Part shown: positions 5,320 to 34,386 of the stretch, piece by piece
How the letters are laid out: each line of letters begins with the position of its first letter
Position numbering within the stretch: the first letter of the stretch is position 1
From: Takakia lepidozioides
Taxonomy: Eukaryota > Plantae > Bryophyta
Length of the DNA: 64,000 bases
NCBI GenBank assembly: GCA_030704615.1
Contig: CM060731.1
Coordinates: 82,832,001-82,896,000, forward strand
Direction: 5' to 3'
Program-made: the position numbers and the translations under genes
The notes under the pieces: generated by a model
Seen by the model: the letters and a program-made list of their open reading frames with translations, nothing else
The model's database searches: none
What the model was told of the DNA's origin: nothing

Positions 5320-5645
5320 ACGTAGGCCCAAGTGCAATCTCCTATGCATCCAACTTTGGCGTCTCCCATGTGCGTCTCCTATGTCGAGGCCCAAATGCAA
5401 CCTCTAGGGTAGCATTTGCCGTTGGCCCAAGTGTCCAATGTCATCTAAATAAGTTTTTTTTCCACATAGCCCAGTGTGCAATCCCCTATGTATCTAGAGA
5501 CCCTCCTGTTTGGGAGATCTAGGCCTAGGGTAGCTTACGCCATTGGCCCATGTATTAAGAATTGAGATCTAAGTCCAAGTGCAATCCCCTATGTATTTAA
5601 GTAGCGTCTCCTATGTCAAGGTCCATGTGTGAAGAATTGAAATCG
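5320..5645 (+). repeat. Cluster of degenerate tandem copies of the repeat seen at 540-646
   Basis: Repeated ggcccaagtgcaatcccctatg and gcgtctcctatgtc motifs. Confidence 0.65.
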
Positions 5646-5705
5646 CTTGCAACTTCGCTGGAAGCATGAGTACCACCAGCAGCCCAAGGGGTATGCATGC
5701 CAATT

Positions 5706-5926
5706 GCCAAGCATTAGATGGGGCCGTGGAGTTGAATGCGAGGGAGCCGGTTCAGCCAACGTGGACCCCCCGCCACCCCATGCCCACCCCCGCCTCCGTC
5801 GCCCGCACACCGCGTGGCACACCTCCCCGCGCCTCATGTGCCCGCTGCGGGGACATGAGACGTGTCCTCGCCCACATCCCCATCCCGCCTCCCATCCTGG
5901 GCATGCCATCGTCATCCATCCCCCAT
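5706..5926 (+). repeat. Left TIR of outer MULE
   Basis: gccaagcattagatggggcc...catccatcccccat is the reverse complement of 20811-21032. Confidence 0.9.
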
Positions 5927-7099
5927 AGTACATGCTATCCCAAGCATACATGGTATCCCAAGCATACATTATGCCCTGTTTCAAAATCATTTTGCAGGAA
6001 TTCAAATTTCAAATGGCAAATCTGAGGAAACGAATGGACGTTTGGATATACGCCATGTGGTCACATACACTGCCACCCCAATCGAGGGTTTTTCTACCCT
6101 CATCGTGCATTTCCGTTCTCTCCATGCTTCCGAAACGCGTCCCTACCCTGGCACTCTGCATTCACATTCTAAATCGAATTGTTGTTGTATCTTGCACCAG
6201 TTGTTCATGAAGCATTCCATAGTAAATTGCAATTGTGTGTATGTTTGGCCCATATAAAGAAGTTGGTGCTTTCATAGGGTGCAATTTGTTGTCTGATGCA
6301 TAAATATACCAGCTATACATGCCATAATCTGCCAGCAGAATAAAAGAGTACGACGTTTGTGGCAGGATAGGGCAGCGAAAGAAGACAACAACAAACTCAG
6401 AAGGATCTTGTTTGTGTAAGCATGGCTGAAGTGGTTGAAGATGGCAAAATTTTGCCCCACCTTCTTTGTAAATTGCAAGGTCTGCTACAAACACCAAAGA
6501 CAAGTACTTTCACACACCATGACGTGCAATGGAGGTCCCAATGGCATGGACAGACACCTGATCAGAACACAGCTGAAATTGCATATATCCCTTGGAATCG
6601 GGTGGTCGACTTCATTGCTGGTGAGTCCTCCCTGAAGGAGGCCCCATGCACCTTCCGAAGTCATCGACAGAAGGGCCCCTGCTGGGAGTCTTCAGGTACC
6701 ACGCATCAATAGTGCCATGAACATTACAAGGTATGAATTCATGATTCATGAAAAATGAAATGAATGCTGCCCACTATACATGTTATGTCCAATCCCATTA
6801 GCCATGCACTTCTGCTTTTCATAAGAGCGGTTCTAAAAGGCCACTCATGTTTTTGGCATAGGTATCACTGTGCCTATGGCCCACACAGGGATGCCTCGGC
6901 GTGAGCCTGGTCGCGTGAGCGCGTGAGCGCGACTGCGCTCACGCCACGTCACCTTGCGCAAATGCCACGTCACGGGTCTCAGTCCACGTCATCACACGTG
7001 GAGGCCGAGTCACCACGCACCCAGAAAGAAGTGGAGTGTATTCCCGCGGATTGGCACCCTTTACCGCGGAAACAAGCTGGACGACATAATAAAAGGCAT

Positions 7100-7420
7100 T
7101 GAATAAATGATGGATGAATGTACAGTTGGATGATAAACAGATGGATGAGTTTGAAAAATCTATGTAGATGGATGAATGACGGATGGATAAGAGTAAAATG
7201 GATGAATGTATAATGGATGTTGAGCAATGACAAAAATTCATGACAGGAAGATGCATGACCAAATCTTTTGACGAATGCACAAAGTATATGAAATGAGTGT
7301 GGAAGGTTTGTGGGGTGGATTAAAGAGTACAGAGGATGAATGTACAATGGATGTTGTACAAATGAAGCTTTCATGAATGGAGCACGCATGAATACAGTGT
7401 AGATGAATGCACAATGGATA
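7100..7420 (+). repeat. Subterminal low-complexity GGATGAATG-type repeats
   Basis: Multiple ggatgaatg / atggatg units; similar tracts at 26400-26500 and, inverted, at 27530-27630. Confidence 0.65.
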
Positions 7421-7911
7421 TGAGAAGAGTCAGGAAGGTTTGTGAGATGGATTCATACATATAGCAATTTAAACGAAAGTTGATTCTGTGATTATTATTT
7501 GTTCTAAAGGAACAACTACGGTAGAGTAAGGGGATTCAACGTTTCCAGATAATATGAAAATGAATATTAAAAGAATACAGTTCAGTCTGACTCAGAGTCA
7601 GTACAATGTATCCCCTCTTCCTCTGCATCTAAGTCTAAGTATTTTAGAACACCGGATCCACGCTGGATACACCTACGGCTGGCCACTAAAAAGTCAGGGG
7701 ATAGGGACTCGGACGCGTGAAGTGCCATTGCTTCGGCATAAACAGGGAGCAGAAAATTGGAAAGGGGGCTGTCGAAAACAGACTCGCCAGAAATGACTGT
7801 ATCTCCTGAAGATCCACCGCTGGCTTTCCTGAAAGACAGCCTGAAAAAGTTATTACTGTAACTTTGATGTTATCGAGAAATTGAGTATGACTCCCAAAGA
7901 GGGTTTAGCAC

Positions 7912-10900
7912 TTACTCACATGAAAAGTCGTTGTCGACCTGCTTATCTTCGGGATCGTCATCATTTCGAATATGAATCCGATCAGTCTGTGTGCCTGAAG
8001 TGGAGCCAGACAAAAGGGGGAGGAGCACTGTGTTGTAGAGGTCAGAATCACCCTCCATACCAAAAAGGCTTCTTCCGCCTGCCTTGCATGCGTGGTAAGT
8101 TGCTCCTGCACCAGACAGGAGAACATAAACAGTTTGGAGGAGGGGATTTAAGCAGATGAAACTGTTGAAAGGAAACCAATTCGGAAGGGAGAAAACGAAC
8201 CTGTGGACACAGAAAGATCGACAACCCGTGCAGAGCGGTGGCTGCATGACTCCAGCAGTATTTGCATGAATGCTGGTGACTTTTCCTTTGCACCTCTCCA
8301 GGGAGTGCCATCTGGTCTCTTCAGAGTCTGACTGGACTGCATGAAGTTGTACAAAATGTCATCGACATGGGGCTCATAGGGGGGGTTGACGAAACAACCC
8401 TGGTCAGAAATCTCAAAGCTGCGGATGGAGGATGGTGTCTTTGATGTGCGAATCCTCCGCAGGCAGATCGCCTCGAACATCCTCGTCTGCCAAAGATAGC
8501 AGGTTAGTGTGGTAAACACAATCTAAAGTGGAAGTGTGTACATCGGCTATTCAGAACTCTGACACCAAAAAACCATGAATCGTTGATGATCGGTGTCGAT
8601 CATAAAACATTCTACTAGAGTGGAGCTGCAGAGAAAATTGAAACTCATGATCAAAGCATAAGCAGAAGGCAGACGGCATACCAGCTGACCAGGGAAACCC
8701 CCTTTCACAAGGTAGAGGCTGTTCACACAATTCCATGTGCGCAAAACTTCAAACCCTGAAGACTTGAGGTATGATGCCAATGCCCGACGACTATCATTGT
8801 CACATGACTGAAAAAGCAGAAGTGTCCCTGCATCAGAGAGGAAATTGTTACAGAACCCGAATACCCAACTCCAGTAGTTGTCCTCGAATTTGTTCCACCC
8901 TGGCGTCTTGCCCTTTGGAAGAACTTCTGGCACAGCCTGGCCATCCGGGATGTCGAGAATGACAATGTCGGCCGCATAAGTTTTCTGCACACCGCACACG
9001 AAGGTGGGACCTGTGCTCACCTGCAACAGACATGTTTTTTATAAGAACGATGGCAAGAATGTTTTCAAAGAACGAGACTGAAATACTGCCAACGAAACAT
9101 TCAGAGAAAAAGGAAAGAAAATGGAATTCTCACCAGATTGAGGAATGAGATTATATTGTCCCAGGTAGGGGATGGCACCCCAGTGTATCCTCTCTTTCGA
9201 CTCTGCATCATCGAAAGCCAACCCTCATTAACAATTTTCATCTCTCCTGCTGAATCAGAACGGGAAGGGTGTGGCTTGGCATCGAACACGCACTGAAGAG
9301 TGCGGGTATATCTTCCAGCACTAAAGTCCTGCCCACTCTCCATCTCCTTTTCATTCTCCTTCCCCTTGTCCTTTTCCTTCTCTTTGGACTTGTCTTTGTC
9401 CTTTGGCTTTGCTGGTGAGATGGCTATGACATCAACAGCCTTGTCTTTTGGTTTGCGGCCCGCCTTCTTTCCCTTCTGCGGCGTTCCCTGAGCATCAGGC
9501 TCCTTGGCAGCCAAGGTTGCTATGTTTCGTTGATACTCTTCGTCAGTCAAAGGCGCCAGCATCTCAGCGTTATTGTTCAAGTATTTCATATGCTGTTCTT
9601 GAAAGGTCGTGTGCTCAGGTGGGCAGTCAAGGTACCACCCACAGTCTCTGAAGTGAGAAGGACTCCAGTCCTTCAATATCCCTGCAGTATACATGGTTGG
9701 ATCGTTTGCAGGGTCCGACCACATGTCAAGATAGTCGGGAATTCCGCTCAGGTGATTTCCTTCCATAAGCACATATTTCGTGTACCTGAAAAAAGGAGAT
9801 GAATCCCAACCCACAAAAGCGCTCAGTGAGTAAGATGCAAGTAGAACAGAAAGAATAAAACATGGATTGAAATGGCTCTGACAACTGCTCCAAGGACCTT
9901 TCAGGACCACACTACTGCTCCAGATATGAATGTCGTCAACGCCATTCAGAACATTCCATTCCATGACACTGTAAATACATCCTAATCCAGGTGAATGCAA
10001 ATAAGCGATTAGAAATGACACAGACATAGAAGTGAATGTCGTCAACGACATTCAAGAATGAAGCCAAATTATTACTGAAATGAAGCAAAATCACAGGATG
10101 GAAATAAAAAAATTGAGTAAGGAACCATCCAGGAAAACTCAATGCACATTCATAACGAACCTATCACTGAGGACCTCACAACATCACTGTATGTGAATGG
10201 CGTCAACGCCATTCACAAAAATACAAAAAAGAAACCAATTACTTAGCTCCCCAATCCATGAAAATTGAATTTGTCGTTTTTTAATAATACAGACACAGCT
10301 GTGAATGTCGTCAACGACATTCACTTTGGATTTCTTAAAACAGAGCTTATGAAGCCTCCATATTCATCGCAAGAGGAAAAAACAATGCAGAACAACTGAA
10401 TGTCTGCATTGACATTCAGCAAAATGAAGTGATCAACCCTCATTGTATCCTCTATGGACATTACAAAAATTTAAATAACCTTGAGGACCACACAACAACT
10501 CCGTATGTGAATGTCGTCAACGCCATTCAAGGACATTATCAATTCTAATCAGGGACAATATAATTGCACCCTTAGATCCTAACCAGGTGAATTCATATAC
10601 TCGCTTAAGAATGACTCAGACAAAGAAGTGAATGTCGTCAACGACATTCAATCTGGATCTAAGATTGCAATCCATATGAAGCCACAATTTTTCCCAAAAA
10701 AACAGTAGAGTTTCAAGTATGACATTTCACCTGTACACAACTCGCATCATGGCCCACTCTCCTCCAACCTGACTGTCAAAGTCGTTGGACCGTAAAATGT
10801 TACCATCTTTGGAGAACTCCCGGAAAAAACAGTATCTCCAGGTGAGACCTCTCCACTTCCTTATGTATGCCTCCAATGACATTTGGGGAGGGGAAACAAT

Positions 10901-13219
10901 CGCAATGTTCAGGTCCTTCAAAGTCTGATCCAGCACAATGACGGCGCGCTTTTCGAGCTGCAAATAGAATATTTGTCAGAATTGCAAAAAAGAAACACAT
11001 CACATACTTGAAGATAAGAAACAGCATGTTCGAATACACACCTGACTCCAAAATGTAGCCTTGTGGAGCCAGTTATCAAACACCAAATCACTGATTCCTT
11101 CCACCTTTGTGCCAGGCTGTATGGTGCTCTTTGGGAACTGATTCAAGTCCTTTACTGTTTGATCTGAGTTCCATATCTCCAGCCACCTTATTTTTGTTTG
11201 TGGGTCGACCATCGATATGGCCAGCCGGTGCAATTTCTCCTGCTGCATCTCCGGATGCACATGCTTGTCATAGTGTGTTTTGATCTGCTGAAGGAACTCA
11301 GGACCAAGTCCAGGATCTACTATTCTAAGCTGCTTTCCGAAGGCTGACATCAATTTGGTTCTTCGCATCTCAAACTCCTTCTTTATTGCAGCTTCCACAC
11401 CCTTTGATGTCCTTAGTTCCTCTGGTGTAGTGCGGTAATATTCGGATTTTCCCTTCTCAGCTGCCTCTGCCAGTTCTTGCTGCATTCATTCAAGTAGTGA
11501 TTAGCTCCGAAGGGACTCTAAACATGTATTCGAAAAGTAAACAGATTACAGACTCGGGCTTACCGCATACATGTACTCCAGAAACGCCTCTCGTGTCAAA
11601 GAATACCAAGTGCCTGCAGCTCTTCCTGTTTCGCACTTCTTGATGATATTGGGTGGTAGTACTGTCCGAAAATCATCCAGCTTCATCAGACCAATCCTCT
11701 GAATTCGGAATAGTGTGTGAACCAAGCTTGTTGTCACATGCGATTTCTCTGTCGATCTGCAAAAACATTGAAAACATTGCATTCCTTAACACTGTTTTTT
11801 GAGGATCAACAAGACACTACAGAGGGAATCAAATCTCCTGGATGACTTACTTGTTCACGTCGTGCATAGCTGTAAGAAGCCTAGCGATGTCGTTTCCTGG
11901 ATCCAAAACCATTGCCTCCACAGCAACATGCTTGTCTTTGTCTTTCGAATGGTGTTTCTGAATGTATCCCATCCATGCCAGCAATCGGTGGTTGCCGTCC
12001 CAGACGTAGAACATGTGGTTGCAAAATTGCTGGGTGTTCTTTCCCATCATGAGGCCCAGCTCGAACTCCTCATTGGCATCTTTCCAGCACTCATCCCAGT
12101 TATCACTGATCTCTGGAGAAACTAATGTGCTTTTCCCATTTATATCCGTCAGTGACACATAAAAAACTTGTGCACCAAGTCTATATCCATGCACAAAATC
12201 ACTCTCCAATTTTGTTATGTCATGGGAAAGAGGTGGACGCACAACAGGCATTGATATCATCCGGCACAGAGGTATGTCCAGACGCCCTCCAGATACGAGC
12301 ATGTCCCTTATAACCTCCTGAGAGTTTACCTTCTGGAATGACATGAGTTCTTTCACCTTGTCAAGGTAGTGCACTTCGGATTCATCTGCTTCATCTGTAT
12401 TCTCTGAGCTTTTTGCGGACTCGTCCCCATCTCCAGATCCTTTCCCCTCTGATCCTGTAGGCTTCGACCTCACAGTTTTCTGCACGATGCCATTCAGTTC
12501 TGACTAAGTCATTTGCAAATAGTGAATGGCGGTAACGACAATCACTCTGTATCAAGGAAACTCACCATGAATGGTGTGAAAGAATTCAGCACAATCTACA
12601 CATGCAAAGCCGAGACTGCCGTATTCAAAACAAAAGTGAGAGCGATAGCGAACGGCGTTAACGACAATCACAAAAGATAACAACCTGCCGGATCGGTGTT
12701 GTGTAATGACATATATGTGCAACTGATTGGCGGCAACGACATTCAGTGTAGTTTAGGGAGAATAGTAAGTGCAGACTCTCTCTTCAAACACATAGGTACA
12801 TAAATCTCATGAGCAGAATCGAATGGCGTTAACGACGCTCGCGATTCAGTAGTTCCTGCTAAAGAATGGAAGAGGAAGGACTCCTTGAAAGGCAATCACA
12901 TAGACTATATGATAAAACTTACTGGCACCTTCTTAGGTTTTGAACTTTGATCCCCTTCTGCAGCTTTCCTCTTCCCTCTCACATCTGCTGGAGTTTCTGT
13001 CTGCGCAAGGGTTTCTTGACCTTCTTCAGGTTCGGCGTTCCGCGTGCTTCCACCTTCTTCAGTGTCCCTGCGATTCATCTCTGCCTCCACAGGCTGGCGC
13101 ACTCTTATCGCCGGCTGTGTCGCAGCCGCTGCCTCAGTCTCCGTCTGCTCTTGTGAATCAGTCTCCGCGTTCACCTGCTGCCTTGGCCCTGTGTTCTCCA
13201 ACAAACGACGCCTCGTCAT
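7912..13219 (-). CDS. Multi-exon ParB/Srx-like domain + beta-class (N4C/N6A) DNA methyltransferase-fold fusion protein, ~1100 aa
   Basis: Phase-compatible GT-AG exons 13219-12923, 12479-11851, 11756-11564, 11479-11042, 10957-10731, 9785-9134, 9020-8682, 8486-8201, 8105-~7920 (possible last exon 7840-7673). ParB box FYVWDGNHRLLAW; MTase motif IV-like ADIVILDIPD...NFLSDAGTLLLF; motifs X-I-II WRGAKEKSPAFMQILLESCS..ARVVDLSVSTGATYHACKAGGRSLFGMEGD. Confidence 0.82.
9927..10650. repeat. Intronic array of 7 palindromes TGAATGTCGTCAACGACATTCA
   Basis: Copies at 9927, 10033, 10194, 10302, 10397 (degenerate centre), 10508 and 10629, all within intron 10730-9786. Confidence 0.92.
12523..12841. repeat. 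Second intronic array of 4 more degenerate palindromes (TGAATGGCG-NN-ACGACAWTCA)
   Basis: Copies at 12523, 12649, 12724 and 12820, within intron 12922-12480. Confidence 0.75.
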
Positions 13220-14074
13220 TTTCTCTCTTGCTCTGCGTCTCTCTCTAAGGGAAGTAAAATAAAGAGACTTTCTTCTCTTTCGTATTCTAGAAGGAACCCT
13301 CTCCAGCTTGACTACCACTCTCCCTCTAAGCGCGAAAAGTAGAAAAACGCAGTGACTCCCGATTTCTTGCGGGATTGCCTGTGTTCTTGCGTGTCTCTAG
13401 AAGCATCGGATTCCCTCCCGCGTGACCGTTACACATAGTCGTTTCGATATTAGTGCACATGCCAGCAATTGGTGTACAGCTGTTCGTATTCAGTTATGGA
13501 TGTCTGACGTGTGCCGCCCAAAACAAAACGGCGTGTTCTAAATTATAACTGGTTCAATATTTAAAAAGAACAGCGAATCCCAGAAATTGATGCGCAGTCT
13601 TAAACAAATAAATATAAATGAACGAGAGTTTGATGACAAATTTTGGAATATCATACACGGTCATCCTTGTTATCCAAACCCCACATTCGTTGCACATTTG
13701 GAACTTTCCAGGTGCGCATGATCATTGGTAGTAGTATATAGATACATTTACTTAATCTGCAATCCCATTCTCGGATCCTGTGGCATGCTTCCAGGAAGTC
13801 GGCTTTGTTATTGGGTTTATTGATGAGGTTCTGATTAACGGTTTAACAGTTGCCGACACTGCCCCTATGGATTCTCTGACCACTGGGCCCACAAGAAAAG
13901 TAATTAAAATGGACGGCTGCATATCTGGAATGAATAACAGAATATGCACAGTCGTTATCTGAGCTTCCTCCGCCATATGCTCTGCTCATTCTTCAACTGT
14001 GTTCTGGAGACAGCAGTAAACCGATTTACACTAGATCTGCGATAGCAAGGTACAAACATACTCGAGGAAGGAAG
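13220..14074. promoter_or_regulatory. Putative bidirectional promoter region between cargo gene and transposase
   Basis: Head-to-head starts at 13219 (-) and 14075 (+); AT-rich centre ~13540-13750; inferred from arrangement only. Confidence 0.45.
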
Positions 14075-17000
14075 ATGGCTTCCTCTGAAGCGGAGTTCTT
14101 CTCAGACGACAAACCAGTGCCGTTCTCCCAGGAAGTCCTTGACAATGGATTTGCAATTGTTCTGGAACATGTCTTGGCTACCCGTTTTCAGCTGCAGAAT
14201 GGCTCCATCTTTTTGGAGAAAGAGGTTTACGATCTGAAAGGGAAGTTGGTGAAATATTCTTTCCAAAACCGTGATGAGACGGCTCATATCAGCCAGTGGA
14301 GAGTGCGTCCTGGTCGATACAGAGTACTTGGAGAGCCTCGGCGAAAGTCCCTTGGGTCATATGTGACGCCCGGGACTGCTGCTTCGGTCGTTGAAGACAA
14401 GAGGGAGGTGGTGGTGAAAAAAGAACAGACTTCCTCCACTCCAATCGTTGAGCTTTCGGATTCTTCCGATGATGACATAAGTGAAATTCCAAATCCAGTC
14501 CTTCCTACTGTGGTTGCAGAAGCTGATGAAGAAGAGATTTGTAGTGTCATTCCAAAATTGCGGGCGATGGGAGGAATGGCTGGATTCAAAAGTGAGTTGC
14601 GGGGAATTGATTGGGAATCTTTGAAGCAGGTGCCTGTGAAGTTCTTGCCGGAGACTTTTGATGGCGATATCCTATTCGAGCTGCCTCCTCCTCCGCGAGT
14701 TGGAGGTGTAACAATCATGATGCATGGAATGGACAAGAAACACGACGGGCACCCGTGGTGCAGAACAAAAACATCCAATATTCAGAATGATGACAAGCTT
14801 GTTTTCAGGAGGACAGTTTGCAATGGACACCTTAGGTGTGATAATTTGAATTGCAGACACTTTCTTCAGTCTGGAGTTCATAATCAAAGCGAATGGGAGG
14901 GTCTGGCGGAGAATCCATTTCAGCCTGGGACTGCCCCTCCACCGGCAAACACTTTCGTCTGCAAATTCTGCAAACTTGTGCCATCCTGCTTGGCGCTCTG
15001 CGGAGCAAGAATGTACTATGTTGTCCACCGTTTGAATACAATGACGAGAGCTTGTGTGCATTTTGGATTCCATAACCATCCTGTCTCGAAGGGGGATTAC
15101 AGGGAGAGTGTTGAGACAGTATCGAGGTTGATCAAACAGGAGTTCGGGAGAAACCCATCCGCAACAACATCTGCAATTGCTCTTGGCGCAAGCAAGTCCT
15201 TCTTGGAAAGCCATATTTTGAGTGAAGGAGATTCTGTGGGGACTAAACTTGACGGTGCAGCATTGGACCTGGTCATGGATCATTTCTCCACTTTAAGTTC
15301 ACCTAACATTCGGCATCAGATCAATGCATTGAGAATGGGCTCTGGGATCAGAGGCTACATAGACAATATTTTGGAATTGAAACGACTGAGCAAGTACGAT
15401 TACATCCAGGACAATGTATTCCCAGGTCAAGGTGCCATCAAAGTTTTTCTTTTCAAAATGTCGACTGTTGGGGAGGGCAGTGGGGTTAGCCTCGTGAAGC
15501 GGATGCAGAAGACTGGGGACTTGCAGAACTGTTTTCTTATGTTTGATCATGTGAAACGAGTGAAGGATTGGACGACAATGGCTTGTCATGTCTACGATCC
15601 AGTGTACCAACGAGTTATGACAATTGCAGTTTGTGACATGCAATCCGAGGATACGGAATCCCAGAAGCTCATGTGGAATTCCCTGATACGTGTCATGGGC
15701 TGCCATGGGCTGCCATCTCCAAATTTCGCAGGTTTCATGGCGGATAGTGCTCAAGCAAATTTCAATGCTATTCGTATTGTCTTCGGATCGGGCGACCCAA
15801 AAGTGCCTATGCCAGGAAGAGAGCGTACATGTCTATTCCATTGGACACAATCTCTGGAAAAACATACAAAGTCGGACATCAAACCAGAGATGCAGACTCA
15901 GCACCGTAAATTGTGCAAAGAGTACAAAGATGCTAGAACAATGAAGGAGGCGGACACTTTGTTCCAGACAATTCGTGCCTGGTGGTTCTCTTCTGGAGCT
16001 GCATCACTTGAGAGTATGAGAGCATTGGAAGATTGGCTGGCGTTTTGGCACTTCCGGTATAGACAGTGGGGAGCAGCCATGACAATGGTACGAGGCTTCT
16101 ATTTCATGCTTTATTCATACATTTGCTTTCCATATTTTTGACTCATTGCTTTCTTTATGTTGTTTCCTGTGCACTATTCTGAAGTGTGGTTATCCTCTTT
16201 GCAGAACATGTCCATTGAGGAAATGGCAGACATGCCATCTTGCAATTTGGCAGAAACTGTGCACAATGCATGGTTGCAGCAGTCTGGGAAAAGAGGTCGG
16301 GATTTGTATGTGGCAACAACAGATGATTTGATACGTGCCTTGCAACAACAAACCCGATACCGTGATTTCTTACGAGGTGGGGTTGGTGGCAAGGGTCCGG
16401 ACAAATCGGAGTTGATGTTGCGTGCTGCAAACAGATCTGGGGATCCAATCAAGATAGCACGGGCGGTGAGCATGTATGCCCAGGGAACGCCACTTGTTTC
16501 TAGAGTTCCACATCTTGAAGGGGAGGAGAGATTCGGCTCCTGTAAGAGGAAATTGAACACTCCACCTGGTTCGGATTCAGATTCCCACAGGGCAGACCGT
16601 GATAACTTCTCGAAGCCTCGTGTTCCCCTGCATGACAGCTCCGTGTCCGGAACCTCCATTGTGGAGGAACCTCCAACACGACGGCAAGCTCCAGCATCAA
16701 ACCGTGCCACTGAAATGGTGCAGGAGAGAAACAACCCCCTTGATGTGCTTGAGTCCGCATGCCCCGACCACGTTTGGCACATAGAACGCACAAGTGTCGG
16801 GTCTCGTGTGAAATGTACAGCGATCAGGGCAACTAATTTCGAGAAGTGCACTTCATCTATATCCAGAGGTGGTGCCCGAACTCCTGCTCCGACTTTCACG
16901 GGCTTGATGCGTCCATACGGTCAACCAGAAGCCAAGAACCACAAGTTCTGGTTCTGCGCAGATGATTGTGCCAGATGTGTGCATGGAACTGTGCGTCCTT

Positions 17001-17590
17001 CCGTAGTGATGAAGCCATCTCCTCCAACCGTTTGGCCCGTGAAGGTGGGAACACATCTCAGCTTTCAGGAGATTGAAATGCTGGAGGAGGCAGGTTTTTC
17101 CCTTGCGAGACAACCCCAACTCCATGCATGTGCTACTACTCCTGCGTCCTCCCGGGTCCCCCCGGCAAATCCTGACTTGTGGCCAACCAAACGAGATGGA
17201 AAGCTCGTTCGGCGTTTCCCTCCAACCGCTGAACACTTTGGCAAAGTGGAGTCCGCAAGAATGCTCCAAGCTCGTGTCGGAAGCACCACGGAAGTACCCG
17301 ATCCAGGATATGGTCGGGTATTCACAATCATCACTTCCACATCTGCTGTTCATGACAGGACCTACGACATCACGGTTTCCAATTTCCCCAATTGCACATG
17401 TCCTGATTTTGTGAATATGCTATCAACCAGTTTGGGCAAGAGAGGTAAATTCATACCCTGCAAACATTTGTATTTCATATTTTTGAGGAGGATGGTTTGC
17501 GATCCCAAACGTGACAACTTCATTCACCAGGCCACTATGAGTTTCAACGAGGTCGATACTCTTTTGCAGCGGGATACAACACATGGGTAG
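14075..17590 (+). CDS. MULE-type DDE transposase with N-terminal GCM-like Zn domain and C-terminal SWIM finger (exons 14075-16087, 16205-17590; ~1132 aa)
   Basis: DGHPWCRTKTSN..FRRTVCNGHLRC..C..C..HFGFHNHP (GCM/WRKY-like); FDHVKRVKDW (D1); FMADSAQA (D2); CLFHW (CxxH); CNLAETVHNAW (E); CTCPDF...PCKHLY (SWIM); phase-0 GT-AG intron; no stops. Confidence 0.9.
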
Positions 17591-20500
17591 CATGAACTAT
17601 GTAATGTGGTATGTGGATGACCATGATTTGAAATGTGTAATTCACATCAATTCGTCGGCTGTGCAATGATATGGCCTCCAACTATACGGAGTGAGGTCTG
17701 AGTGACAACTTTTAGGTAGTGCACATTTGTCATTGCACCGTTCGAAGTCTACATGTCTTGCTGTCGCTATGCACTACAATCATCTTTTGAAGATGATCAT
17801 AACTCTCATTGTTATTTGAGGAGGGAGGAAGTCTTCTCGTGGCAGCCTTTATGGCGCACACTTTGTGAGGATATTTTGTCGTCTTCGTAATTGTAAAAGT
17901 GAAACAAACATTTGTAATTGCACAATGTTGGATGCTGCAATTGTAGGCCTCAACGCTCGTCTTGATTCTATTTAGGCAAGATTCCCTGCATTAATTCCAC
18001 GGTCATAGGACCATCCACGGTTATAGGCGGCGCATGTTAATGCTGACGTGGCAGTTGACGGACAGTGCCACGTCATCATTTACCGCCACATCAGCATGCT
18101 GACATGACGCTCACGCCACGTCAGCATGTGTGCAGGCTCACGCCACGTCAGCTGGCGTGAGCGTACGCTCGCGCGCTCACGTGCAACGCTCACGCCATTG
18201 CGTCGTTGTGGCCCACAAGACAATACCCAAAACATTGTGGAGGTAACAGATGCTATGCGTGCCAAAAAATGGCGTGCAGGTCCAGCCAAGAAAAAGGGTG
18301 AAAGCCTAGAGTGGGGCCAGAATCCAGAAGACAAAAACCAAAACAAGTAAGGACTACAAACAACAAAACAGAAGAAGGCATGAAAAGAAGTTGCATGTGC
18401 CGATTTGTTGTCAAACAATGCTACCTGGACCCTGCTATGGCGGAGATAGTTTATTATGAGAAACAACATGTAAATGGAAGAGGTGAGATATGCCACGGAC
18501 TTTCATGTCAGTTGAACCGAAGTGCAATGGCTCCCCATCTTAGTGATGACATAAAGTCATGGATTTTGCACAATTTTGCGTCTTGGGCTGAGCATAAACA
18601 AGATAATGGCCAAGCACACCATGCGAGTGAAGGAGTTGATGGAGCAAGGGTTGGACGTCAACCGTGACATTTTTCTACTCTCCCAAGACATACGCAATAT
18701 CGCGACGCTATGCGATGAAGAGACATTCAGAAAACACCCAAATGATGCCCAGAGTGTCCACATGTGGGTGCATGAAAATATGGCCAGTGTTTTCTACTAC
18801 CAAGAAGAAAAGAACCACAAGGCTTGGACATCCAGTGACATCAAGCTTGATCTTCCATTCGTTCTTGGCATACAAACAGTGTGGCAGCGAGATCGAATGT
18901 TGAAATTTGGCCATCATAGAATTGTCGCTTGCGACGCCACCTTCGGAACCAATGAGAAGAAGGTGTGATCTCTATTTTTTCTTCATTACAATCGTTGAAG
19001 CCAGGTTTAGGGTGTACTTGCCATACTGCATCCCCACATCGTACAAAGGTCCTCCTCACAACTTTCTCGATTCAAATGTCGAATGGAATCCCAGTTGCAT
19101 TCATCATCACAGCGAGATCAAATGCAATCGATTTGGAGCCATGGATGTCTGCACTGAACGGGAAGCTTCAGGCTGACCAGGCAGGATGGTGCCCACATGC
19201 TTTCATTGTTGATGACGCAGATATTGAAATAAAAGCAATCAGGTGATTGCCAATTCACACCTCTCTGAAATTCCGAGGTTTTCTACACTTCTCCACATTA
19301 TAATGTTGTCACATGTCTTTCTATGTCAGGGCCGTGTGGGGGCAGTCTGCAGTATTTCTATGCCTTTGGCATGTGAGGAAAGCATGGCAAAAGAATGCCG
19401 TGTCTAAGATCAAAGATGCAGATTAGCGTGCATGTGTCATGCAAGACATGTCTAAAATCATGTATAGTGCGTCAAAAAGCGAGGGCGACGCATGTGAAGC
19501 ATGGGCGGTGTGCGAACTTGTGAATTTGCATTTCAAGTATCCCACTCTAAGTGAATTTTGTGACTACTTGGAGCAGGAGTGAGTTCCTAAAGCTAAGATG
19601 TGGACATTGGGTTCTCGCAACATTCCACACGCAGGACAAGACACAAATGCCGCCATTGAAGCTTATCATGGAAATTTGAAGGCACAGCTGAAATGCACAA
19701 AGACTAAACTGGTCAGCAGACGAGTCGATTGGCTCATTCATGAACTCACAGGTGATTTGCTCATTACTGGTATATGTCCTATGCCAAAACATATGGCTTC
19801 ATCCGTAATAAGCGACTCGAAGGCTTCGTCTGTAGCTCTATTTTGCTTGCCAAACAGATTCCGGATTGCAATGTCAACCTTCCGCAGACACAAGGGGGCA
19901 TCGCAACTGTCAAATGTATTTGGGATGACGGGACTCCTTATACGGTTCACAATCCACAGTCCAACTGGGGATGTTGCGATTGTCGTCATGCCCGCAAAGG
20001 GAATATGTGTGCGCATCAGGTCAAGGTTTTGCAAATGATGCACCCCAACTTGGAAGATGGCACCATAGCAAAATATTGTGGAAGCCTTATTGGCAGCAAC
20101 AGAGGAGGCCTTCATTGCCTGTTTGCACCACCTGAATCACCCACATCAATGCGCTCCAAAGCGCCTCCCCTTCCTTCCACACACAACTCATCACCATATT
20201 CGTCTCAGAAAAGTCCAGGACTGCCATTGCTGGGAATGATATCCACTGAGTTCGAGCAGGTTCTCGACATGACAAGACAGAGCACGGTTTTGCAGCAACA
20301 CCTTCTTTCTATGGTTCGAGCAGCCAAAGGGAAAATTTGTGATTTGACGTCCACAATGGAGGAGGGTATTCATCATCCCCAAGACGACCCCACTCTCACT
20401 GAGGTTGACGATGGAAACACCAACTCACTTGTGAGATGGAAGGATTTTCTGGAGGCGCGCGGTAGAAAGCGTCATCTGCCACCTGTGCCTGAATGAACGA

Positions 20501-20810: not shown

Positions 20811-21032
20811 ATGGGGATGGACGACGATGGCATGCCCAGGATGGGAGGCGGGATGGGGATGCGGGTGAAGACACGTCTCATGTCCCCGCAGCGGGCACAT
20901 GAGGCGCGGGGAGGTGTGCCGCGCGGCGTAGGGGCGACGACGGAGGCGGGGGTGGGCATGGGGTGGCGGGGGGGCCACGCTGGCTGAACCGGCTCCCTCG
21001 CATTCAACTCCAGGCCCCATCTAATGCTTGGC
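20811..21032 (-). repeat. Right TIR of outer MULE
   Basis: Reverse complement of 5706-5926. Confidence 0.9.
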
Positions 21033-22231
21033 CATACCATTACACTTGGCTACAACTTGGTTGCTTGCAGATTCTTCCTGCAGCCCTATATAGTTTTAGG
21101 TCCTAGTGACATGGCCGGGCGGAAGTTTCCCGGCACGGCACTAGGACGCCTGAGAAGTTGGGGCTTATCATTTGCAAGTAATCAGTATGCTTAGTCCTTT
21201 ATACACAGACCTAGACCCACACAAATGCCCCAGACACAAAATTTCATTGAAACAGTGGGCATTAAGAAAGATCAATGCCTTTTTTTCTCTTGCGTAATAT
21301 GCAGGAAAGGGAATTCACCCTATCCTTCCACCGGTATTTCCATCTTTATTTGCTCATTGGCAAGGCAGTGGGAACCTTGTGTGAGATTTAACAGATTATG
21401 GCATTCAGAAGGTATTTTGCAATTGCTATTTTACAGCATTTTTGAAACAAATGAAGACAAGCTGGTTAATTCATAGCCATTACGGGTGTGTATGCAATTT
21501 AGAGACCCTCATATCTCCTCCCACCGAATCAACAAAACGCCTTGGAACTCATCCATCAGGTGTTCCTGGTAAGCGGTTCTCTCAAAGGTTTGGACTTTGT
21601 TAACAAGTTAGAGAAGAGAGAGAGAGTATTGCTTATCTACCTGGAATTTGCTAAGGAAGGAAGAACTGATGCACTATCAATCAAAGATCAAAGATCAAAG
21701 CTCAACCCAACTAAAGCTGCAAGAAGAGCAGATTCTGACAAAACCAAATCTAGCAGCTTTGAGTCTTAATCCAAACCCTATAAACAAGCCATGGAAGTTG
21801 CCATTCACTGATCTAAAAGAAGTAGCCTTAATGACACCTGATAAGCCACCACATCCAAGTAGTCATCATAAGAATCTACAACTCTGCCAAAGACAAAAGA
21901 ACACAAGTCTCACAGCCTACTGTCAAAGTTCAGACCCACACAGATTCCACTGCCAAGTATTGCCAAACCACCATATCTGTTTGGGTTAACATGTGAATTG
22001 TTTATCATACATGCGTTTGGTCATTTGCAGTCTGGCATTATTTTCTACAAACCAGCAAATCAGATACAGGCCAAAAAGCTTATTGCCAAAATCCCTCCTC
22101 AAGATCTTTCTCTGTTCTAACTGGCTCTGAACTGCTGCACAAGTGACGCCTAACAAACAGAGTATTGCTTATTAGGGTAAGTAGCTTCCTCGATAACCCC
22201 CCCAACCATTTAATACAAGAGTAACAGTTGC

Positions 22232-23857
22232 TTAGACAGCAGCTTCCAATGGCTCTTGAGATTTCTTCACTTTCTTAGCCTGGTAGTCCTTTACTGCTGC
22301 TTTGATGGCATCCTCCGCGAGCATGCTACAGTGCAATTTCACAGGCGGGAGAGACAAGTGCTTTGCTATATCACTGCACCATCCCAAAACCAGCTCCCCC
22401 AGTTTATGACGACATCACTGAATTGTACATGCATTTCAAACTGATGCTAATGGTTTTGGATTCTGAACGCTTGCAACAGAAATGAAGCAGAGTCAATCCA
22501 ATAAGCATCATCACACCTGGAAAATCTGTACTCCGATGTGAAGAACGGAAATTCGATTATTTCTGTATCCTATAGGACGACATCAGTATTACCTTCAGTG
22601 AGTTCAACCTTAACACAGCCCTTCCTTAGGACATGAAGGCTGTGAAACCTTATGTCTGAGTGGAATAAATACTCAATCTGTCCAGAGTAGCATCCCTGGA
22701 TACACTTAGACTAATATAGACGCAACATTAAACACAGAGAAGTGGACCCACCTATTTGTTATGGACACTGCTTCATCCATGCCCTTCCCTTTTATCCACT
22801 CTGATGCTGCAACCCATCACAGCCACCAATTCATTAAAACCCTTGGCACATCAAATAATTTGCCTACTCCTAATTAATCCGCCCCTCCGCCTTCCTGCTT
22901 CTCACCCTTTGTTGCAGAGGTGAGCTCTCTGCAATGGAACAGAGTCCCTTCCTCAGCAGCAAAATAATGTGTGGTTTGATGAGCTACTATTAAGGAGAAA
23001 ATGATACACAAGCATGCTAGACGAAACTGGCATCCAACCGAATCCTAGACACTCAGAAGCACATCATTAAAAATAACAAAGTTGTGTGTATTTAAAGCCC
23101 TGCCACAACTACTCTTGCCATATGACTCCATGCCATGATGCCCAATGTCTGTCCATGCACTTGAATTAAACCTGGCTGGGGAGACATACAGATGAAACAG
23201 ACTGCAGTATAGTAAAACTATAGCAACTATACCAACAGATGATGAGGCTATGGCAGATCCGCAGCCAAAGGTCTTGAAACAAGCATCCGTAATCTCCCCT
23301 GTGGATTCATCCACTTTGATTTGAAGCTTCATCACATCTCCGCATGCAGGTGCCCCCACCAGCCCTGTTCCCACTGAAGGATCATTCTTGTCAAAGGACC
23401 CCACATTGCGGGGGTTGTTGTAGTGCTCCACAACCTGTTACAAAATGTCATTGACTCCTGTTAAAAAATGAGACTGACAGTCACCTCAAAACCTCTCCCG
23501 GAAGCCAAACACTCCCAACGAGTTCCTCAATTACTGCTGAGTTTAGTCACTCGAGAAACATAGACTAAGCTTATGCACTTCTTATAATTTGCGTGCCATA
23601 ACCTTGAGGCCATGGCACCGTGCACCTAGTTTGAGCTGGCCACAAAGGCAACAAGGGGGAGGGGATAAGAGTGTTCAGGCGCAGTATGGAGACATCCCCA
23701 AGTGGCAATAAACAACCATACTTCAGACTATGGGGGGTTTGGAGCATACTTTCTCATGGTATGCTCTCTTTTCGGCCACCAGTGGCCCCCTTGATGCTTC
23801 TGCGACCCTTGCCGAACCTGCCGCCTTCACCACTCCCCTAGTGATTTGCCCCAACAT
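22232..23857 (-). CDS. ISU1: Mitochondrial iron-sulfur cluster assembly scaffold (IscU/ISU family); exons 23857-23750, 23434-23233, 22806-22752, 22373-22232
   Basis: YHEKVVEHYNNPRNVGSFDK..VGTGLVGAPACGDVMKLQIKV..FKTFGCGSAIASSS..EWIKGK..IAKHLSLPPVKLHCSMLAEDAIKAA; transit-peptide-like N-terminus; consistent splice phases. Confidence 0.96.
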
Positions 23858-24865: not shown

Positions 24866-24938
24866 CGCCGACCGAGGGATTCGAACCCTCGACCACGTGG
24901 TTAAAAGCCACGCGCTCTACCAACTGAGCTAGGTCGGC
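24866..24938 (-). tRNA. trnK-UUU: tRNA-Lys (anticodon UUU)
   Basis: GCCGACCTAGCTCAGTTGGTAGAGCGCGTGGCTTTTAACCACGTGGTCGAGGGTTCGAATCCCTCGGTCGGCG forms a 73-nt cloverleaf with intact A/B boxes. Confidence 0.97.
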
Positions 24939-26179: not shown

Positions 26180-27787
26180 ACGAGCAACAAAGGCGTGAGC
26201 AGAACCCGTGAGCAGATTCCTTTATGCGTGAGTGGATTCCCCGAAGCGTGAGCAGATTACTGATGCGGACCCTAGAACCGAGGGAACAAGTGGGCCTATT
26301 GTCGTGGACGCAAACTCCACTGCAACGACGCGATCTCCTCTCTATCGGACCGGAGACAGACAGGCTCCATGACGACAATGTGGCACGAATGTGCGATGAA
26401 AAATTTACGGATGAATGTATTTGGGATGGACTTAAAAGGGAATGGATTAACATTGGATGAGTGGCAGATGAAAAACTGCCCAGATGATTGAACCATGGAT
26501 GGCTGCAACAACATCTATCCTCAGGGATCAGCATGCGTAGAGAAGCAGGCATTAAGCTGTCGTCAACGACAGCTTAAATCGTAGCCCCTGTCAGCACATG
26601 ACAAATGAACCCATGAATATCTCCCCAGAACAAATATGTCCCCTGGAAAAAACCATAGGGAGGATCTTTTTTGTGCAGAGAAGCAGGCATTAAGGTGTCG
26701 TCAACGACATCTTAATTCCCAGCCCTGTTGGGACATGACAACGAATCATAAGTTATGTAGTCCGAGGAATTTGTAGATGTCATTCACCCCAAATAGCACA
26801 CCAGAAGAGCGGCATTAAGGTGTCGTCAACGACACCTTAATCTAGCACCTTCGGGAAAAATTAAAAAATTAAAAATAAAATTTGAAAACTTGCAAATGAA
26901 CCCAACCCCTGCTTTGCAAGCAAAAGACCTGGCGTTTACCCAGCATGGATTTTTGGACACCAGGAAGAATGACATGACAACGAATCATAAGATATGTAGT
27001 CCGAGCGTAGATGTCATTCACCCCAAATAGCACATTCGGGGGGAAAAAAAATGGATTAAGGTGCCAGATTAAGGTGGCGCATTCGGGGTAAAATAAAAAT
27101 AAAAAAAATCGGACTTTTTTTGTTTTGTTTTGTTTTTTTTTGGAAAACTTGCAAACAGATTTTGAGTTGTCATGTTACGCGGAGGCTGCAGCGGGCGATT
27201 TAGTCTCATTTCATCTCCCCCTCCTGTGCTTTACGACAGAGATGGTTTTTAGTAGAGCAGGACTAGTGTCTTCATAGACAATTGTGCCTTCGTTTTGGAC
27301 ACTGACTCCAGTAGCAGTGGATAATCTTCGTCGGAATGAATCGACTGTTTTCAAACAATTTTTATTAAAGCACCAAATGGCCTCTCCACCTTCTTTGCAA
27401 TTGGGTGTGAGCATCTCTCTCGACTTAAGATACCTGGTAAAAGGACAACCACAACCTTCCTCAGTTGGCACAGGTTCACTCTGGAGCTTGAGGGATTCGG
27501 CAGCCACTACTGAAAAATATTTTTTAATTTTCCATTCATCCACAAATTACATTCATCCAATGCCATTCGTCCAACATACATTTATCGGCCATTCATCCAT
27601 CATTCATCCGTCATTCATCCATAACGATGAATTGGTATGCATGTTATACTGGACACTACCCGCAGTAATAGGTCCTCTAAGCTGAATAGGTGTCCGCGGT
27701 TATAGGTGAGCAGATCTTGAAGCGTGAGCAGAAATTTGCTCACGGAATTTTTTGCTTACGGATTCTGCTCACGCTTTAGCAATCCCC
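26180..27787. mobile_element. Non-autonomous MULE related to the nested 6886-18208 element
   Basis: Perfect 9-bp TSD GCTCATACA (26171-26179 and 27788-27796); 21-nt termini ending in GCGTGAGC as in the nested element; subterminal CGTGAGCAG, CCGCGGTTATAGG and GGATGAATG motifs; internal palindromes. Confidence 0.85.
26552..26840. repeat. Three 26-bp palindromes TTAAGSTGTCGTCAACGACASCTTAA
   Basis: Copies at 26552-26577, 26690-26715 and 26815-26840; share the core TGTCGTCAACGACA with the 9927-10650 array. Confidence 0.9.
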
Positions 27788-29556
27788 GCTCATACAGAGG
27801 GCCCTGGTGAGATTTTGGAGGGAAGACCTCGAGGAAGGGTGACGGCGCAGAGCTCTTCTGAGCTGGAAGCAACTAACTCAGAAGAAATACAGTAATGGGG
27901 GTCTGGGCATTATTGATCCACAAGCACAGATCTGTGCTCTTCTTGCGAAATGGGTCCCAAGGATTTTTTCGCATTTCACTTCCCCTTGGAGCTTGATAGT
28001 AAGACATCATATCCTTCAAGCTCGTCCGACGCCTGTCTCGGTTTGGCCCCAATCTCTCAGATGGATTGTCCAAGGAGGTTCTTCCAATTCGGTAATGTCC
28101 CCTAGTTCAGGGGCCTGACATTTTATTTGGCATTCCTGATTTTCTGTCCGTTATCTTCTTTCCCAAAAATCTCCGAGCTCTCCGGAAGAGGCTCTCAGAC
28201 AGCCTTTGTTTGGTAATTTTAATCTGGACTCTGAGCTGTTGGTTAAGTGCTCCCCCAGATGGGCGCATTGGGAAGCTGCGGGGTTTCCAATTTCATGCAC
28301 CTATGGGAGAATGGTTCCCTTCTTTCCCCTTCTTGGCAGTTACTACCCTCTCAGCTACTAGGAGTCAAGGCGGGGTGGGAGTCTATCACTGATGACATCC
28401 CTGAGTCATGGATTTCCCTAACCTCGTTCCCTGCTAATAGAAGGTGTCTTTTTTGTCTAGGTTGGTTGTGAAGTTGGGGGCTTCAAGTTCACTTTCTATA
28501 TATGAACTATATCGCTCGGGAGCTTCACTTCATGGTTGAGGAGTTCAAAGTTTACAGCGCATCTTGCACTCCCCGAAGCTTTCTTCCTCCCTGGAGGCCG
28601 ACTTCCTCTTCGTTGTTCGGGTCTTTTGCATGACGACCGGGGTTGTTAACCCCTCCGCTGACAATGGTTGCCACACAAATCCTAAGTTTCTTTGGTTCTT
28701 GACTGCCCCTCTTGCCCTGCTCCAGTTTTACCTAGGAGAATGGATCTGGTGCGACAGGAAACACTCCCATCTTTTTGCTTACTCTGTCAAGCTGGGTTAC
28801 TCCCTGTTAAACCCCACGGCCTCTTTGGACCTCAAATTGACAAAAAAATGGTCTCATCTGGCTGATCATTCTTGTTTCGTGGAAAGCTGTTTGGAAGGAT
28901 GTCTAGAGGAAAGATAGGGCTGCCAAAATTTATGGTTTCCTTTGGAAGTTGGTGAACAAGATATTATCAGCCTTACCTGCTTTCAGAACACACCTCATTT
29001 TTGCAACTTTTGCCCCTTTCAATCTTCTGAATCTCTTCGGCATTGCTTTCTTTACTGTCCAGTGGCTAGGCATACCTGGATTAAGGTTATCTCGTTCTTT
29101 GTTTTTTGGAAACCTCTGCCATTGGCCTTCTCTACTGTTGTGCTTCTGAACTTTGCTGGAGGATCATTATGGTCTTCATGCCCTGTCTGGGCTGCCCTTA
29201 GGGCGCACACCTTGTGGCTCGTTGTGAACGGGCCTCAAAGCCGGTTTGTGTTCGGGCTATATTGTATAAGACTCACTCAGACTTATTGTCTGAAGCTCGT
29301 AAGGCTTGGCGGATGTTGGGATTAGCTCTTCACAGATGCGGACAGAGGATGAGACTTCAATTGCTCGCTGGCTTTGATGGATTATGGGGAAATGGAGGTC
29401 GGATCTGCACCAAGGAATTGGACTCAAGGGTTACCTAGTGTGACAACATCCCTTTAGGCTGATAGTTCCCTTAGTTCCAAGCGCTCCCCTCTGGGGGGGA
29501 GAGGAGGCTGATGTCAATTGGCGCCACCGTAGATCTTCTAGGAAAAGGAAGGCTAA

Positions 29557-30132
29557 TGTCACAGACATAGCCCAGAGGAACTTACCAGGAGTAAATACCA
29601 GAAGTTACCAAGTTACCAAGTTACCAAAAATTACCGTGATCTACCATGATTTATCATGATTTACCATAAGTTACCATTAGTTACCAAGTTTCCGGGAGTT
29701 TACCAAATTACCAAGAGTAACTTGGGAAACTGCTCAGGAAGCTTCATTTGGAGGAAACTTCTCCATCAAGAAACCTCCTTGGGGAAGCCTCTTAGGGAAC
29801 CTCCTAGTAGCAAGTATATATAGGAGGCGAGATTGGACACTCTTCAGTCTCGCCAACACAAGTTCAAGGTACTCTTGTTCCCAGTTTAGTACTCCAATCC
29901 AGCTTCCAGTATTTAGTCCACTTTCCAGTATCTGGTACTCCAGTCCAGTTTCCAGCATTCCAGTATTCGAGTCGAGTTCCAGTATCTTGTACTCTTGTCA
30001 ATTGTTATAAAGATCATCTTGATTCATGTTTATCCACCATGCATTCGGCCACGCCGACCTTGACTTCTAATCTAGTCTTGTACCTCTAGTCTGATCTCTT
30101 GTTTGTGTTCAGTCATGTTCTCATCCTTGACA
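29557..30132 (+). repeat. 5' LTR
   Basis: tgtcacagac...ccttgaca; TATA-like tatatata at 29815-29822. Confidence 0.95.
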
Positions 30133-30135
30133 GTT

Positions 30136-30146
30136 TTGGCGAGACT
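30136..30146 (+). promoter_or_regulatory. Primer-binding site complementary to LTR 29846-29856 (self-priming type)
   Basis: TTGGCGAGACT is the exact reverse complement of AGTCTCGCCAA, located about 24 nt downstream of the end of the LTR TATA. Confidence 0.75.
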
Positions 30147-30171
30147 AAATTTTGTTCCTTAGTTAGTTAAG

Positions 30172-33100: not shown

Positions 33101-34217
33101 GCTAGAGCGAAGGGACCACGACATCGACCTTACGGCCTTCTTCAACCATTACCCATTCCCAATGGTCCATGGTCGTCCGTGTCTATGGACTTTATTACGG
33201 ACCTTCCAATTTCCAAGACCACCGATTCAATCCTTGTTATTGTAGATCGTTTTACAAAGATGACACATTTTATTCCATGTAATAAGACGATTACCGGCGA
33301 GGAAACTGCAAGACTCTTCCTCAATAATATCTACCGCATTCATGGACTCCCGAAAGATATCGTATCTGATTGAGGACCACAGTTCATATCAAATTTTCTG
33401 GAGGGGATTATTTCACATATTGGATACTAAGATCAATCTCTCTATAGCTAATCATCCACAGACTGATGGTCAAACCGAATGCGTAAACCAGATTTTGGAG
33501 CAGTATCTTCGCTGTACGATAAATTATCACCAAGATAATTGGACGGATCTTCTGTCATTGGCTGAGTTTGCCTACAACAACACTATACATTCTTCGACCA
33601 AACAAACTCCATTTTTCTCCAATTATGGTCATCATCCTCGAGCAAACCATTTCCACATGAAGACTGTTGGTAGCCCTGTTGCAGAAAACCTTGCTACGAT
33701 TCATAAAGAGCTTACATTCCACCTCGAAGAAGCTCAAAAACAATACAAGGAGTATGTAGATCAACATCGCCAACTCCAACCCCAGTTCAAGGTCGGAGAT
33801 CGTGTGTGGCTTCTTCGACGGGACATGCAAACCTCGCGACCATCAAAGAAGTTGGATTATCAACGTCTGGAACTATTCAAAATTATTCGACAAATAAATC
33901 CGGTCAGTTTTCGGCTTGAACTCCCACGAAGTATGCACATCCATCCAGTCTTTCACGTTTCATTATTGGAGTTGTATCATCCATCGAATATTCCAGGGAG
34001 AGTCTCTATACCACCTCCATCAATTGAAGTCAATCAGGAAATCGAGTATGAAGTCGACGAAGTCCTAGACTCTCGCATCAAGTATAAACGTCTTGAGTAT
34101 TTCGTACATTGGAAAGGCTACGGCATCAGCGAACGAACGTGAGAACCTTCATCCAACCTTGCCAATGCATCTGACAAAGTCCAAGAGTTTCATTAACGAT
34201 ATCCAGCTAAGCCCTGA
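30172..34217 (+). pseudogene. gag-pol pseudogene (partly deleted gag, CCHC knuckle, protease, RT, RNase H, integrase, chromodomain)
   Basis: MPEKFDG; CLYCGEEDH; ALLDSEAS; [24 protein letters not shown]; NYEIHDKELLAI; WSSVSMDFITDLP; HPQTDGQTE; YEVDEVLDSR...YFVHWKGY. Confidence 0.93.
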
Positions 34218-34386
34218 GCTATACGTCAATAAGACGTCACAACGATGATGTCAACCAAGTTAGCTTCAAGGTGAAGACTCCACATTTAGTGTATCTGATA
34301 CCCACTAAGGAGGGAGGTTTTCCAACTATAAGCAAGTCCAAGATTTTACCGCACCTCGAGGAACTCGGCACTAGAGGAAGGGGTGA

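Follow-up and report, generated by a model that had tools for sequence, protein, structure and literature searches.

VANDAL has been singled out as the one transposon for which binding and modification of its own sequence are known, whereas such a role has only been proposed for algal ParB-fold cargo (10.1101/2025.02.11.637652, available text). The targets of VANC lie in tandem repeats in introns (PMC5735166). The accessory gene of Sola1-1_Ec32 in Ectocarpus encodes ParB-like and N4/N6 methyltransferase domains, and it has been proposed that its product binds and modifies its own element (PMC12477816). No binding sites for this gene are described in the available text of that paper, and the string "palindrom" occurs 0 times in its main text; similar proteins in green algal transposons are cited there, and these may bear on the novelty of what is reported here. 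In Bostrychia, the PAG3 gene of Plavaka is a ParB-fold cargo gene beside which lie inverted-repeat arrays that have been proposed to be binding sites, and the available text gives neither the geometry of these sites nor a conservation test (10.1101/2025.02.11.637652). Phage fusions of ParB with an N6N4-methyltransferase have the same two-domain layout as the protein discussed below (10.1101/2025.10.10.680097), and DUF3723 is a recurrent cargo of fungal Starships (10.1101/2021.12.13.472469). Thus, ParB-fold cargo genes are known from algal transposons, one of them with inverted-repeat arrays, and self-binding has been proposed.

The locus described here lies in a 64-kb stretch of DNA, referred to as the window, and consists of a Mutator-type element with an accessory gene that has an array of palindromes in one of its introns (Table 1). 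No description of these palindromes in land-plant Mutators was found in the literature covered, which consisted of main texts and included few subscription papers. Why would a transposon keep a set of short palindromes nearly unchanged while the DNA between them decays?

Table 1. Positions of the features in the window
Feature	Position	Strand	Remarks
Whole Mutator-type element, autonomous type	6886..18208	.	11,323 bp; 9-bp duplication TGGCCCACA
Accessory gene, predicted ParB-fold/methyltransferase-like	7582..13219	-	ten exons, open and homologous to P0171/P0172
Exon 2, predicted ParB/Srx-fold domain	12503-11851	-	DGNHR
Intron 1	12922-12504	-	419 bp
Intron 5	9786..10730	-	945 bp; GT..AG, 10730 to 9786
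Array of seven 22-bp palindromes	9927..10650	.	three diverged tandem A-B(-C) units
Four degenerate palindrome copies	12523..12841	.	intron 1; 12523, 12649, 12724, 12820
Single palindrome	8584..8605	.	intron 7; CG-N4-CG geometry kept, other arms
MULE-type transposase gene, putative C-terminal SWIM finger	14075..17587	+	ORFs; divergent from accessory gene
Non-coding sister element	26180..27787	.	1,608 bp; 9-bp duplication GCTCATACA; same CGTGAGC end repeats
CGTGAGC subterminal repeats	6900-6945, 18109-18195, 26194-26253, 27723-27773		some palindromic; both ends of both elements
Inverted repeats of outer MULE	5703-5923, 20813-21035		224 bp (93%); split by the 11,323-bp element
Outer MULE transposase, broken	near 6371-6709 and 18302-20493		remnants
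Another element	528-638, 5323-5644		repeated inverted ends around retrotransposon-like ORFs
LTR retrotransposon	29546-35035		direct repeat of ~600 bp (80% identical); broken pol ORFs
tRNA gene	24866-24938	-	
Presumed retrotransposon remnants	60155-64000	-	integrase-/PHD-like ORFs; C5 DNA-methyltransferase-like motifs (ENV, LDLFGG)
Presumed host-like ORFs	23048-23437, 48098-49165, 54948-56264		Fe-S scaffold; mechanosensitive channel; beta-1,3-glucanase

The palindrome array of intron 5

The seven palindromes start at 9927, 10033, 10194, 10302, 10397, 10508 and 10629, with spacings of 106, 161, 108, 95, 111 and 121 bp between successive starts. Each has two 10-bp arms around a 2-bp spacer, and the half-site is TGAATG(T/G)CGT. 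The copies at 10033, 10302 and 10629 match the consensus exactly and the copy at 10194 is also a perfect palindrome; those at 9927 and 10508 have one mismatch each, and the copy at 10397 pairs at 8/10 positions and has lost both CpGs. When up to 3 mismatches were allowed, the pattern gave 12 strand matches compared with 0 in 100 shuffles. A preliminary description of this DNA had reported seven palindromes every 95-161 bp within one intron, three of them exact and six with both CpGs, and all of this is borne out. The intron is real since it has GT..AG ends and exactly 945 nt are skipped by one contig of run X8. Contigs of the same run also join introns 6 (acceptor at 8985) and 7; the splice support rests on X8 contigs, and it is a guess that this run is RNA. 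The preliminary description had also proposed a dimeric unit of roughly 270-310 bp repeated three times. Three diverged units are present, but they range from 267 to 327 bp in size, and the layout is A-B(-C), with a third site in unit 2. In one contig from another sample a third-type site is found at the place where unit 1 has none. Contig joints that skip ~264-271 and 597-599 bp (9860-10740) suggest that the number of units varies among genomic copies, or that contigs were misplaced among the units.

The palindromes are far better conserved than the DNA between them. When the three units are aligned, 130/132 pairwise identities (98.5%) and 43/44 invariant columns are found in the A and B palindromes, while the alignable spacers have 242/411 identities (58.9%) and 60/137 invariant columns (Fisher P = 6.6e-12 for invariant columns), and the best 22-column run in the spacers has 14/22 invariant, with the caveat that the palindrome columns were picked because they recur. 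An independent test was therefore needed, and it came from variants among genomic copies, for which contigs of four runs (three samples) were placed on 9860-10740. None of the 40 variant positions listed (33 further rows exist) falls within the palindromes, which make up 17.5% of the stretch (naive P = 4.6e-4), but reads that match at two places raise the apparent depth over the palindromes, so variants there may be hidden, and the result is suggestive rather than clean. Intron 5 has 12 CpGs in palindromes, and in the remainder 7 are observed where 26 are expected. Across repeat units and genomic copies the palindromes thus come out ahead of their flanks, as had first been described, and it is supported that they are a strongly conserved cis-element under selection.

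Strict matches to the motif in the 64-kb window are confined to introns 1 and 5. The three longest introns of the gene (945, 419 and 195 bp) are the ones that bear sites, and the site-free introns 2-4 are only 84-94 bp long compared with 945 bp for intron 5.

The preliminary description had taken this pattern to suggest selection for either a dimeric protein site or a hairpin. One of its observations was the copy at 10194, which was said to change both arms in a way that keeps the symmetry. It is indeed a perfect palindrome and differs from the B-type consensus at two positions, but it is only one substitution away from its A-type homologues at 9927 and 10508, so the claim of a compensatory change fails. 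At position 7 in the 11 sites of introns 1 and 5 the combinations are TT (4), GT (4), TG (2) and GG (1), with independent assortment of the two halves. In a set of 117 sites from 18 loci, which were picked by their match to the family half-site and not by symmetry, the arms pair at 570 positions compared with 571.5 when partners are swapped (288 compared with 295.9 for the core). Compensatory base pairing was rejected on these two grounds. Spacers in the TG orientation are as common as those in CA (29 each of 84), and there is no preference for mismatches compatible with wobble (67 vs 77). Intron 5 folds with a z of -6.3; when the palindromes alone are scrambled the folding energy goes from -284 to -239 kcal/mol, where the shuffle mean is -237, so this z is due to the palindromes alone. 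A long-hairpin precursor was rejected because the folding vanishes in this way. An Rfam search over 6800-28000 returned one tRNA only at the gathering score, and a known non-coding RNA was rejected since there was no match for the array. Two observations count against the protein-site reading and would agree with a degree of hairpin or template-switch homogenisation: a small copy-specific excess of symmetry is found in the 6 bp that flank the arms (354 vs 317.4, P = 0.0005; P = 0.014 for the window), and there is one C-G/G-C double change in the sister element. The symmetry of the palindromes is best explained if the two halves match a single recognition sequence. Of the two options first put forward, the dimeric protein site is therefore favoured by conservation, geometry and clustering near the ParB-fold exon, and the hairpin is disfavoured by arms that do not covary.

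Site geometry in related loci

The best 80 of 245 confirmed metagenome loci fall into 53 clusters, and 54 loci were used, one per cluster, with the two pieces L022 and L024 both kept. Palindromic arms around CG-N4-CG were found 14 times, in 11/54 loci, compared with 0.2 in ten shuffles, and each of the other CG gaps (0-3 and 5-12) occurs 0-1 times. A decay-tolerant scan, which allows C>T and uses a TCGG core that was chosen after matches were seen, found 94 sites with a 2-bp spacer upstream of the ParB exon in 36/54 loci, while spacers of 0, 1, 3, 4 and 5 bp gave 4-13 sites. The core of decayed relatives shows C>T and G>A changes, which the scan itself favours. Upstream sites are present in 21/29 loci that have at least 1 kb of upstream DNA, in 13/15 with 0.5-1 kb and in 2/10 with less, and 8/29 of the loci with at least 1 kb have no upstream site. 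L004 and L018 contain downstream exons and no downstream sites. Among the de novo palindromes listed for the loci lacking sites, no clear alternative motif was seen.

The sites cluster around the ParB gene. Per 10 kb there are 12-14 of them in the 2 kb that precede the ParB exon and 3-8 between +1 and +3 kb, compared with 0-1.9 in other stretches, and only 2/126 nearby sites lie inside exon matches. Transposase remnants are also present in 5 loci, where the sites mostly adjoin the ParB gene. The outer arms are family-specific, being TGTGTC, CAACTT, CTTCTC or AAGCAT in relatives and TGAATG in the window. The exact motif of the window has 0 matches in the metagenome contigs; the relatives use other arms. 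Close relatives on the exon-2 tree have outer arms in common, and the window row is a long branch; this sharing falls short of proving that arms and protein have evolved together. The arms of L025, L027 and L059 reach ~18 bp and have another TCGG-like word at their outer edge, and in L027 the sites have a regular period of 51 bp. What is shown is a family-wide geometry, which is not universal, of two CGs 4 bp apart, a free 2-bp spacer and family-specific outer arms.

The host element and its accessory protein

The element is flanked by its 9-bp target-site duplication at 6877-6885 and 18209-18217. Its ends are short and imperfect and share GGCGTGAG; MULEs without long terminal inverted repeats exist. 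The top ESM Atlas matches of the transposase carry PF10551 MULE (0.95, 172 shared features), a Pfam search with the transposase gave no direct MULE match, and the SWIM finger has E = 0.007, which is below the cut-off. The accessory gene and the transposase are the only genes in the element, and no ParA partner gene is found within it. The sister element has three palindromes, at 26554, 26692 and 26817, which have the inner 14 bp TGTCGT-CA-ACGACA in common and differ in their outer arms. No trace of the accessory gene or of the transposase was found in it by tblastn. The CGTGAGC repeats near the ends of both elements are likely sites for the transposase. Repeats of the CATTCATCCAT type are common to the 3' region of the accessory gene (7100-7220) and the sister element (27570-27622) and are possibly a second cis-element.

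The accessory protein is ~1,165 aa long, a length obtained by summing exon lengths by hand with the exon 9/10 junction read by eye. It consists of an acidic N-terminus, a predicted ParB/Srx-fold domain, a helical middle and a domain resembling the beta-class amino-methyltransferases. Exon 2 has 550 relatives at E <= 0.001, and the named relatives are from a moss, a clubmoss and ferns, which makes a seed-free land plant the probable host. The full-length relatives P0171 (Ceratodon) and P0172 (Diphasiastrum) align with exons 2-9 of the window, P0172 without exon 5. In its annotation the clubmoss protein P0172 begins with a Myb domain to which the ParB-methyltransferase part is fused, and this could be a domestication or a fusion of gene models.

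Searches with the ParB-like exon against Pfam and with exon 2 alone in a word-based protein search gave no match, and sequence searches of the PDB returned nothing useful. The assignment is based on models of two relatives, P0171 and P0004, that are ~41-42% identical to exon 2 of the window. The top 8 VIA-align rows for these models are all ParB/Srx-fold chains (Z 5.2-7.8). KorB is the best match (Z 7.8, rmsd 2.5-2.6, 94 residues aligned), and PadC, Pnob8 ParB-N, SerK, Srx and SbnI are among the others. The alignment is deep only for the ParB part of the models, and the remainder has low confidence (mean pLDDT 52). Foldseek ranked Noc first, with no row reaching E 0.001, and beta-class structures are among the rows. 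A ParB/Srx fold is thus predicted for the accessory protein from fold matches that are middling (Z < 8). The Box II GxxR motif is DGNHR in the window, and G..R is found in 48/56 homologues. No helix-turn-helix match stands out after the ParB fold, in a region that is helical and poorly modelled.

The methyltransferase-like domain is encoded by exons 7-9. The single exons of the window have no Pfam match to the methyltransferase family; exons 7-9 align to P0171 and P0172, which match N6_N4_Mtase (PF01555) at E 4.9e-7 and 4.2e-8, respectively. The order of motifs is that of the beta class, with motif IV before motif I. The canonical beta-class motif IV is (D/N/S)PP(Y/F/W) and the canonical motif I is FxGxG. 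Motif I reads DLSVSTG here. It is doubtful that this domain methylates DNA, to judge from its sequence, because motif IV is DIPD in the window and varies in relatives (DYPE, DIPE, DVPR, DIPW, DTPF and DVPF).

Self-binding, its alternatives and the known systems

It is proposed that a dimer of the element's own ParB-fold protein docks on the double-stranded palindromes, with each subunit reading one 10-bp half-site. The sites would be multiplied by tandem duplication as the spacers diverge, and loading and spreading of the protein may proceed as for ParB at parS. In this way VANC-like protection against CG methylation would keep the element out of host silencing. With its degenerate catalytic motif, the methyltransferase-like domain is more likely to read or shield the DNA than to methylate it, and non-coding derivatives would keep their sites and be served in trans. 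The parts of this proposal are not equally secure. It is very probable that the palindromes are protein sites, and the ParB-fold protein of the element is probably what binds them. The chances that the outcome is protection from CG methylation, which is argued by analogy with VANC, appear about evenly balanced. For the reading as a whole, in which the element's own ParB-like protein docks in the manner of parS and counters silencing in the manner of VANC, we lean slightly towards its being correct.

A bolder version, which we consider unlikely, would be a domesticated parS/ParB-type system in land-plant Mutators. A nucleotide-gated dimeric clamp would load at CG-N4-CG palindromes in its own introns and slide along the element, the altered methyltransferase domain would shield or sense the CGs, and the outer arms would be a family address that evolves with the protein. 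If true, this would be sliding-clamp anti-silencing in a eukaryote, independent of VANC.

The alternative that survives best, although it too is unlikely, is that the same protein binds but places a 4mC/6mA mark of its own on the CGs, or acts as a repressor of its element through autoregulation like that of KorB. The beta-class amino-methyltransferase domain, with its PF01555 matches in both full-length relatives and beta-class structures among the Foldseek rows, favours self-marking, as does the CG pair being the most constant feature across families. Self-modification has also been proposed for the Ectocarpus gene (PMC12477816), and the place of KorB among the top fold matches would suit autorepression. 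Against self-marking are the degenerate motif IV (DIPD; DYPE, DIPE, DTPF and DVPF in relatives) and the DLSVSTG of motif I. The C>T and G>A changes that decayed relatives have in the core fit ordinary 5mC in dead copies, though the scan favours such changes.

It is improbable that the binder is the transposase, on the model of Spm TnpA or AtMu1 activation, or else a host transcription factor, with the palindromes placed in the accessory gene by chance. Transposases can activate cognate copies in a sequence-specific manner (10.64898/2026.08.24.746577), and the sister element retains sites without having the accessory gene. However, a separate subterminal motif, CGTGAGC, is present at both ends, which is the usual place for transposase sites, and the palindromes track the ParB exon over 54 loci. 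The outer arms differ from one family to the next, a turnover that would not be favoured if the binder were a fixed host factor. Least probable are RNA hairpins, DNA cruciforms or neutral upkeep by tandem duplication and template-switch repair, for which the strong folding of intron 5, the small excess of flank symmetry and the double change in the sister element speak, but the folding signal disappears when the palindromes alone are scrambled, the arms have no covariation, strand bias, wobble preference or Rfam match, the spacer has a fixed length but a variable loop sequence, and template switching leaves unexplained why families ~30-45% identical in protein have the same geometry in the same place.

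How does self-binding by the accessory protein compare with the known systems? VANDAL/VANC of Arabidopsis is also a Mutator-like element with an accessory gene and short family-specific motifs that are tandemly duplicated in introns and other non-coding DNA, but the VANC21 motif is 9 bp long, has one orientation and has been shown to be bound and demethylated, whereas here the motif is a 22-bp palindrome and the protein has a predicted ParB fold (PMC5735166, available text). No VANC-type Pfam match was seen; what was found of the VANC type is the trait of family-specific motifs in tandem arrays in the non-coding parts of the element. There is a likeness in domain description with Sola1-1_Ec32, which has a protein of ~1,100 aa with the two domains, transcribed opposite to the transposase; that, however, is a Sola element of a brown alga, and here a land-plant Mutator carries a defined palindrome array (PMC12477816, available text). 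PAG3 similarly has a ParB-like domain in a transposon accessory gene with tandem inverted-repeat arrays adjoining it, but the fusion is to a 2OG-oxygenase and not to a methyltransferase, and the element belongs to the Plavaka superfamily of a red alga (10.1101/2025.02.11.637652, available text). The top ESM Atlas look-alike of P0171 residues 215-600 is fungal DUF3723 (0.97), a likeness at the level of features that is a lead only; DUF3723 is transposon cargo, as is the gene here, and no alignment or Pfam match supports DUF3723 in P0171. DUF3723 genes may also have palindrome arrays.

The bacterial ParB/parS, Noc/NBS and KorB systems resemble this locus in the ParB/Srx fold with GxxR, predicted here, and in palindromic loading sites. 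Both parS and NBS sites are palindromic. Unlike these systems, the locus has no ParA partner, no helix-turn-helix match, an intron-containing eukaryotic gene and degenerate methyltransferase motifs. New here, in a plant Mutator lineage, are the family-wide site geometry and the data that speak against compensatory base pairing. The locus provides a precise conserved candidate site and its natural variants, in which the core geometry is constant and the outer arms are family-specific, so the proposal of self-binding can be directly tested by cross-binding. This bears on whether ParB-type clamps act on eukaryotic chromatin and on how moss-type elements escape CG methylation.
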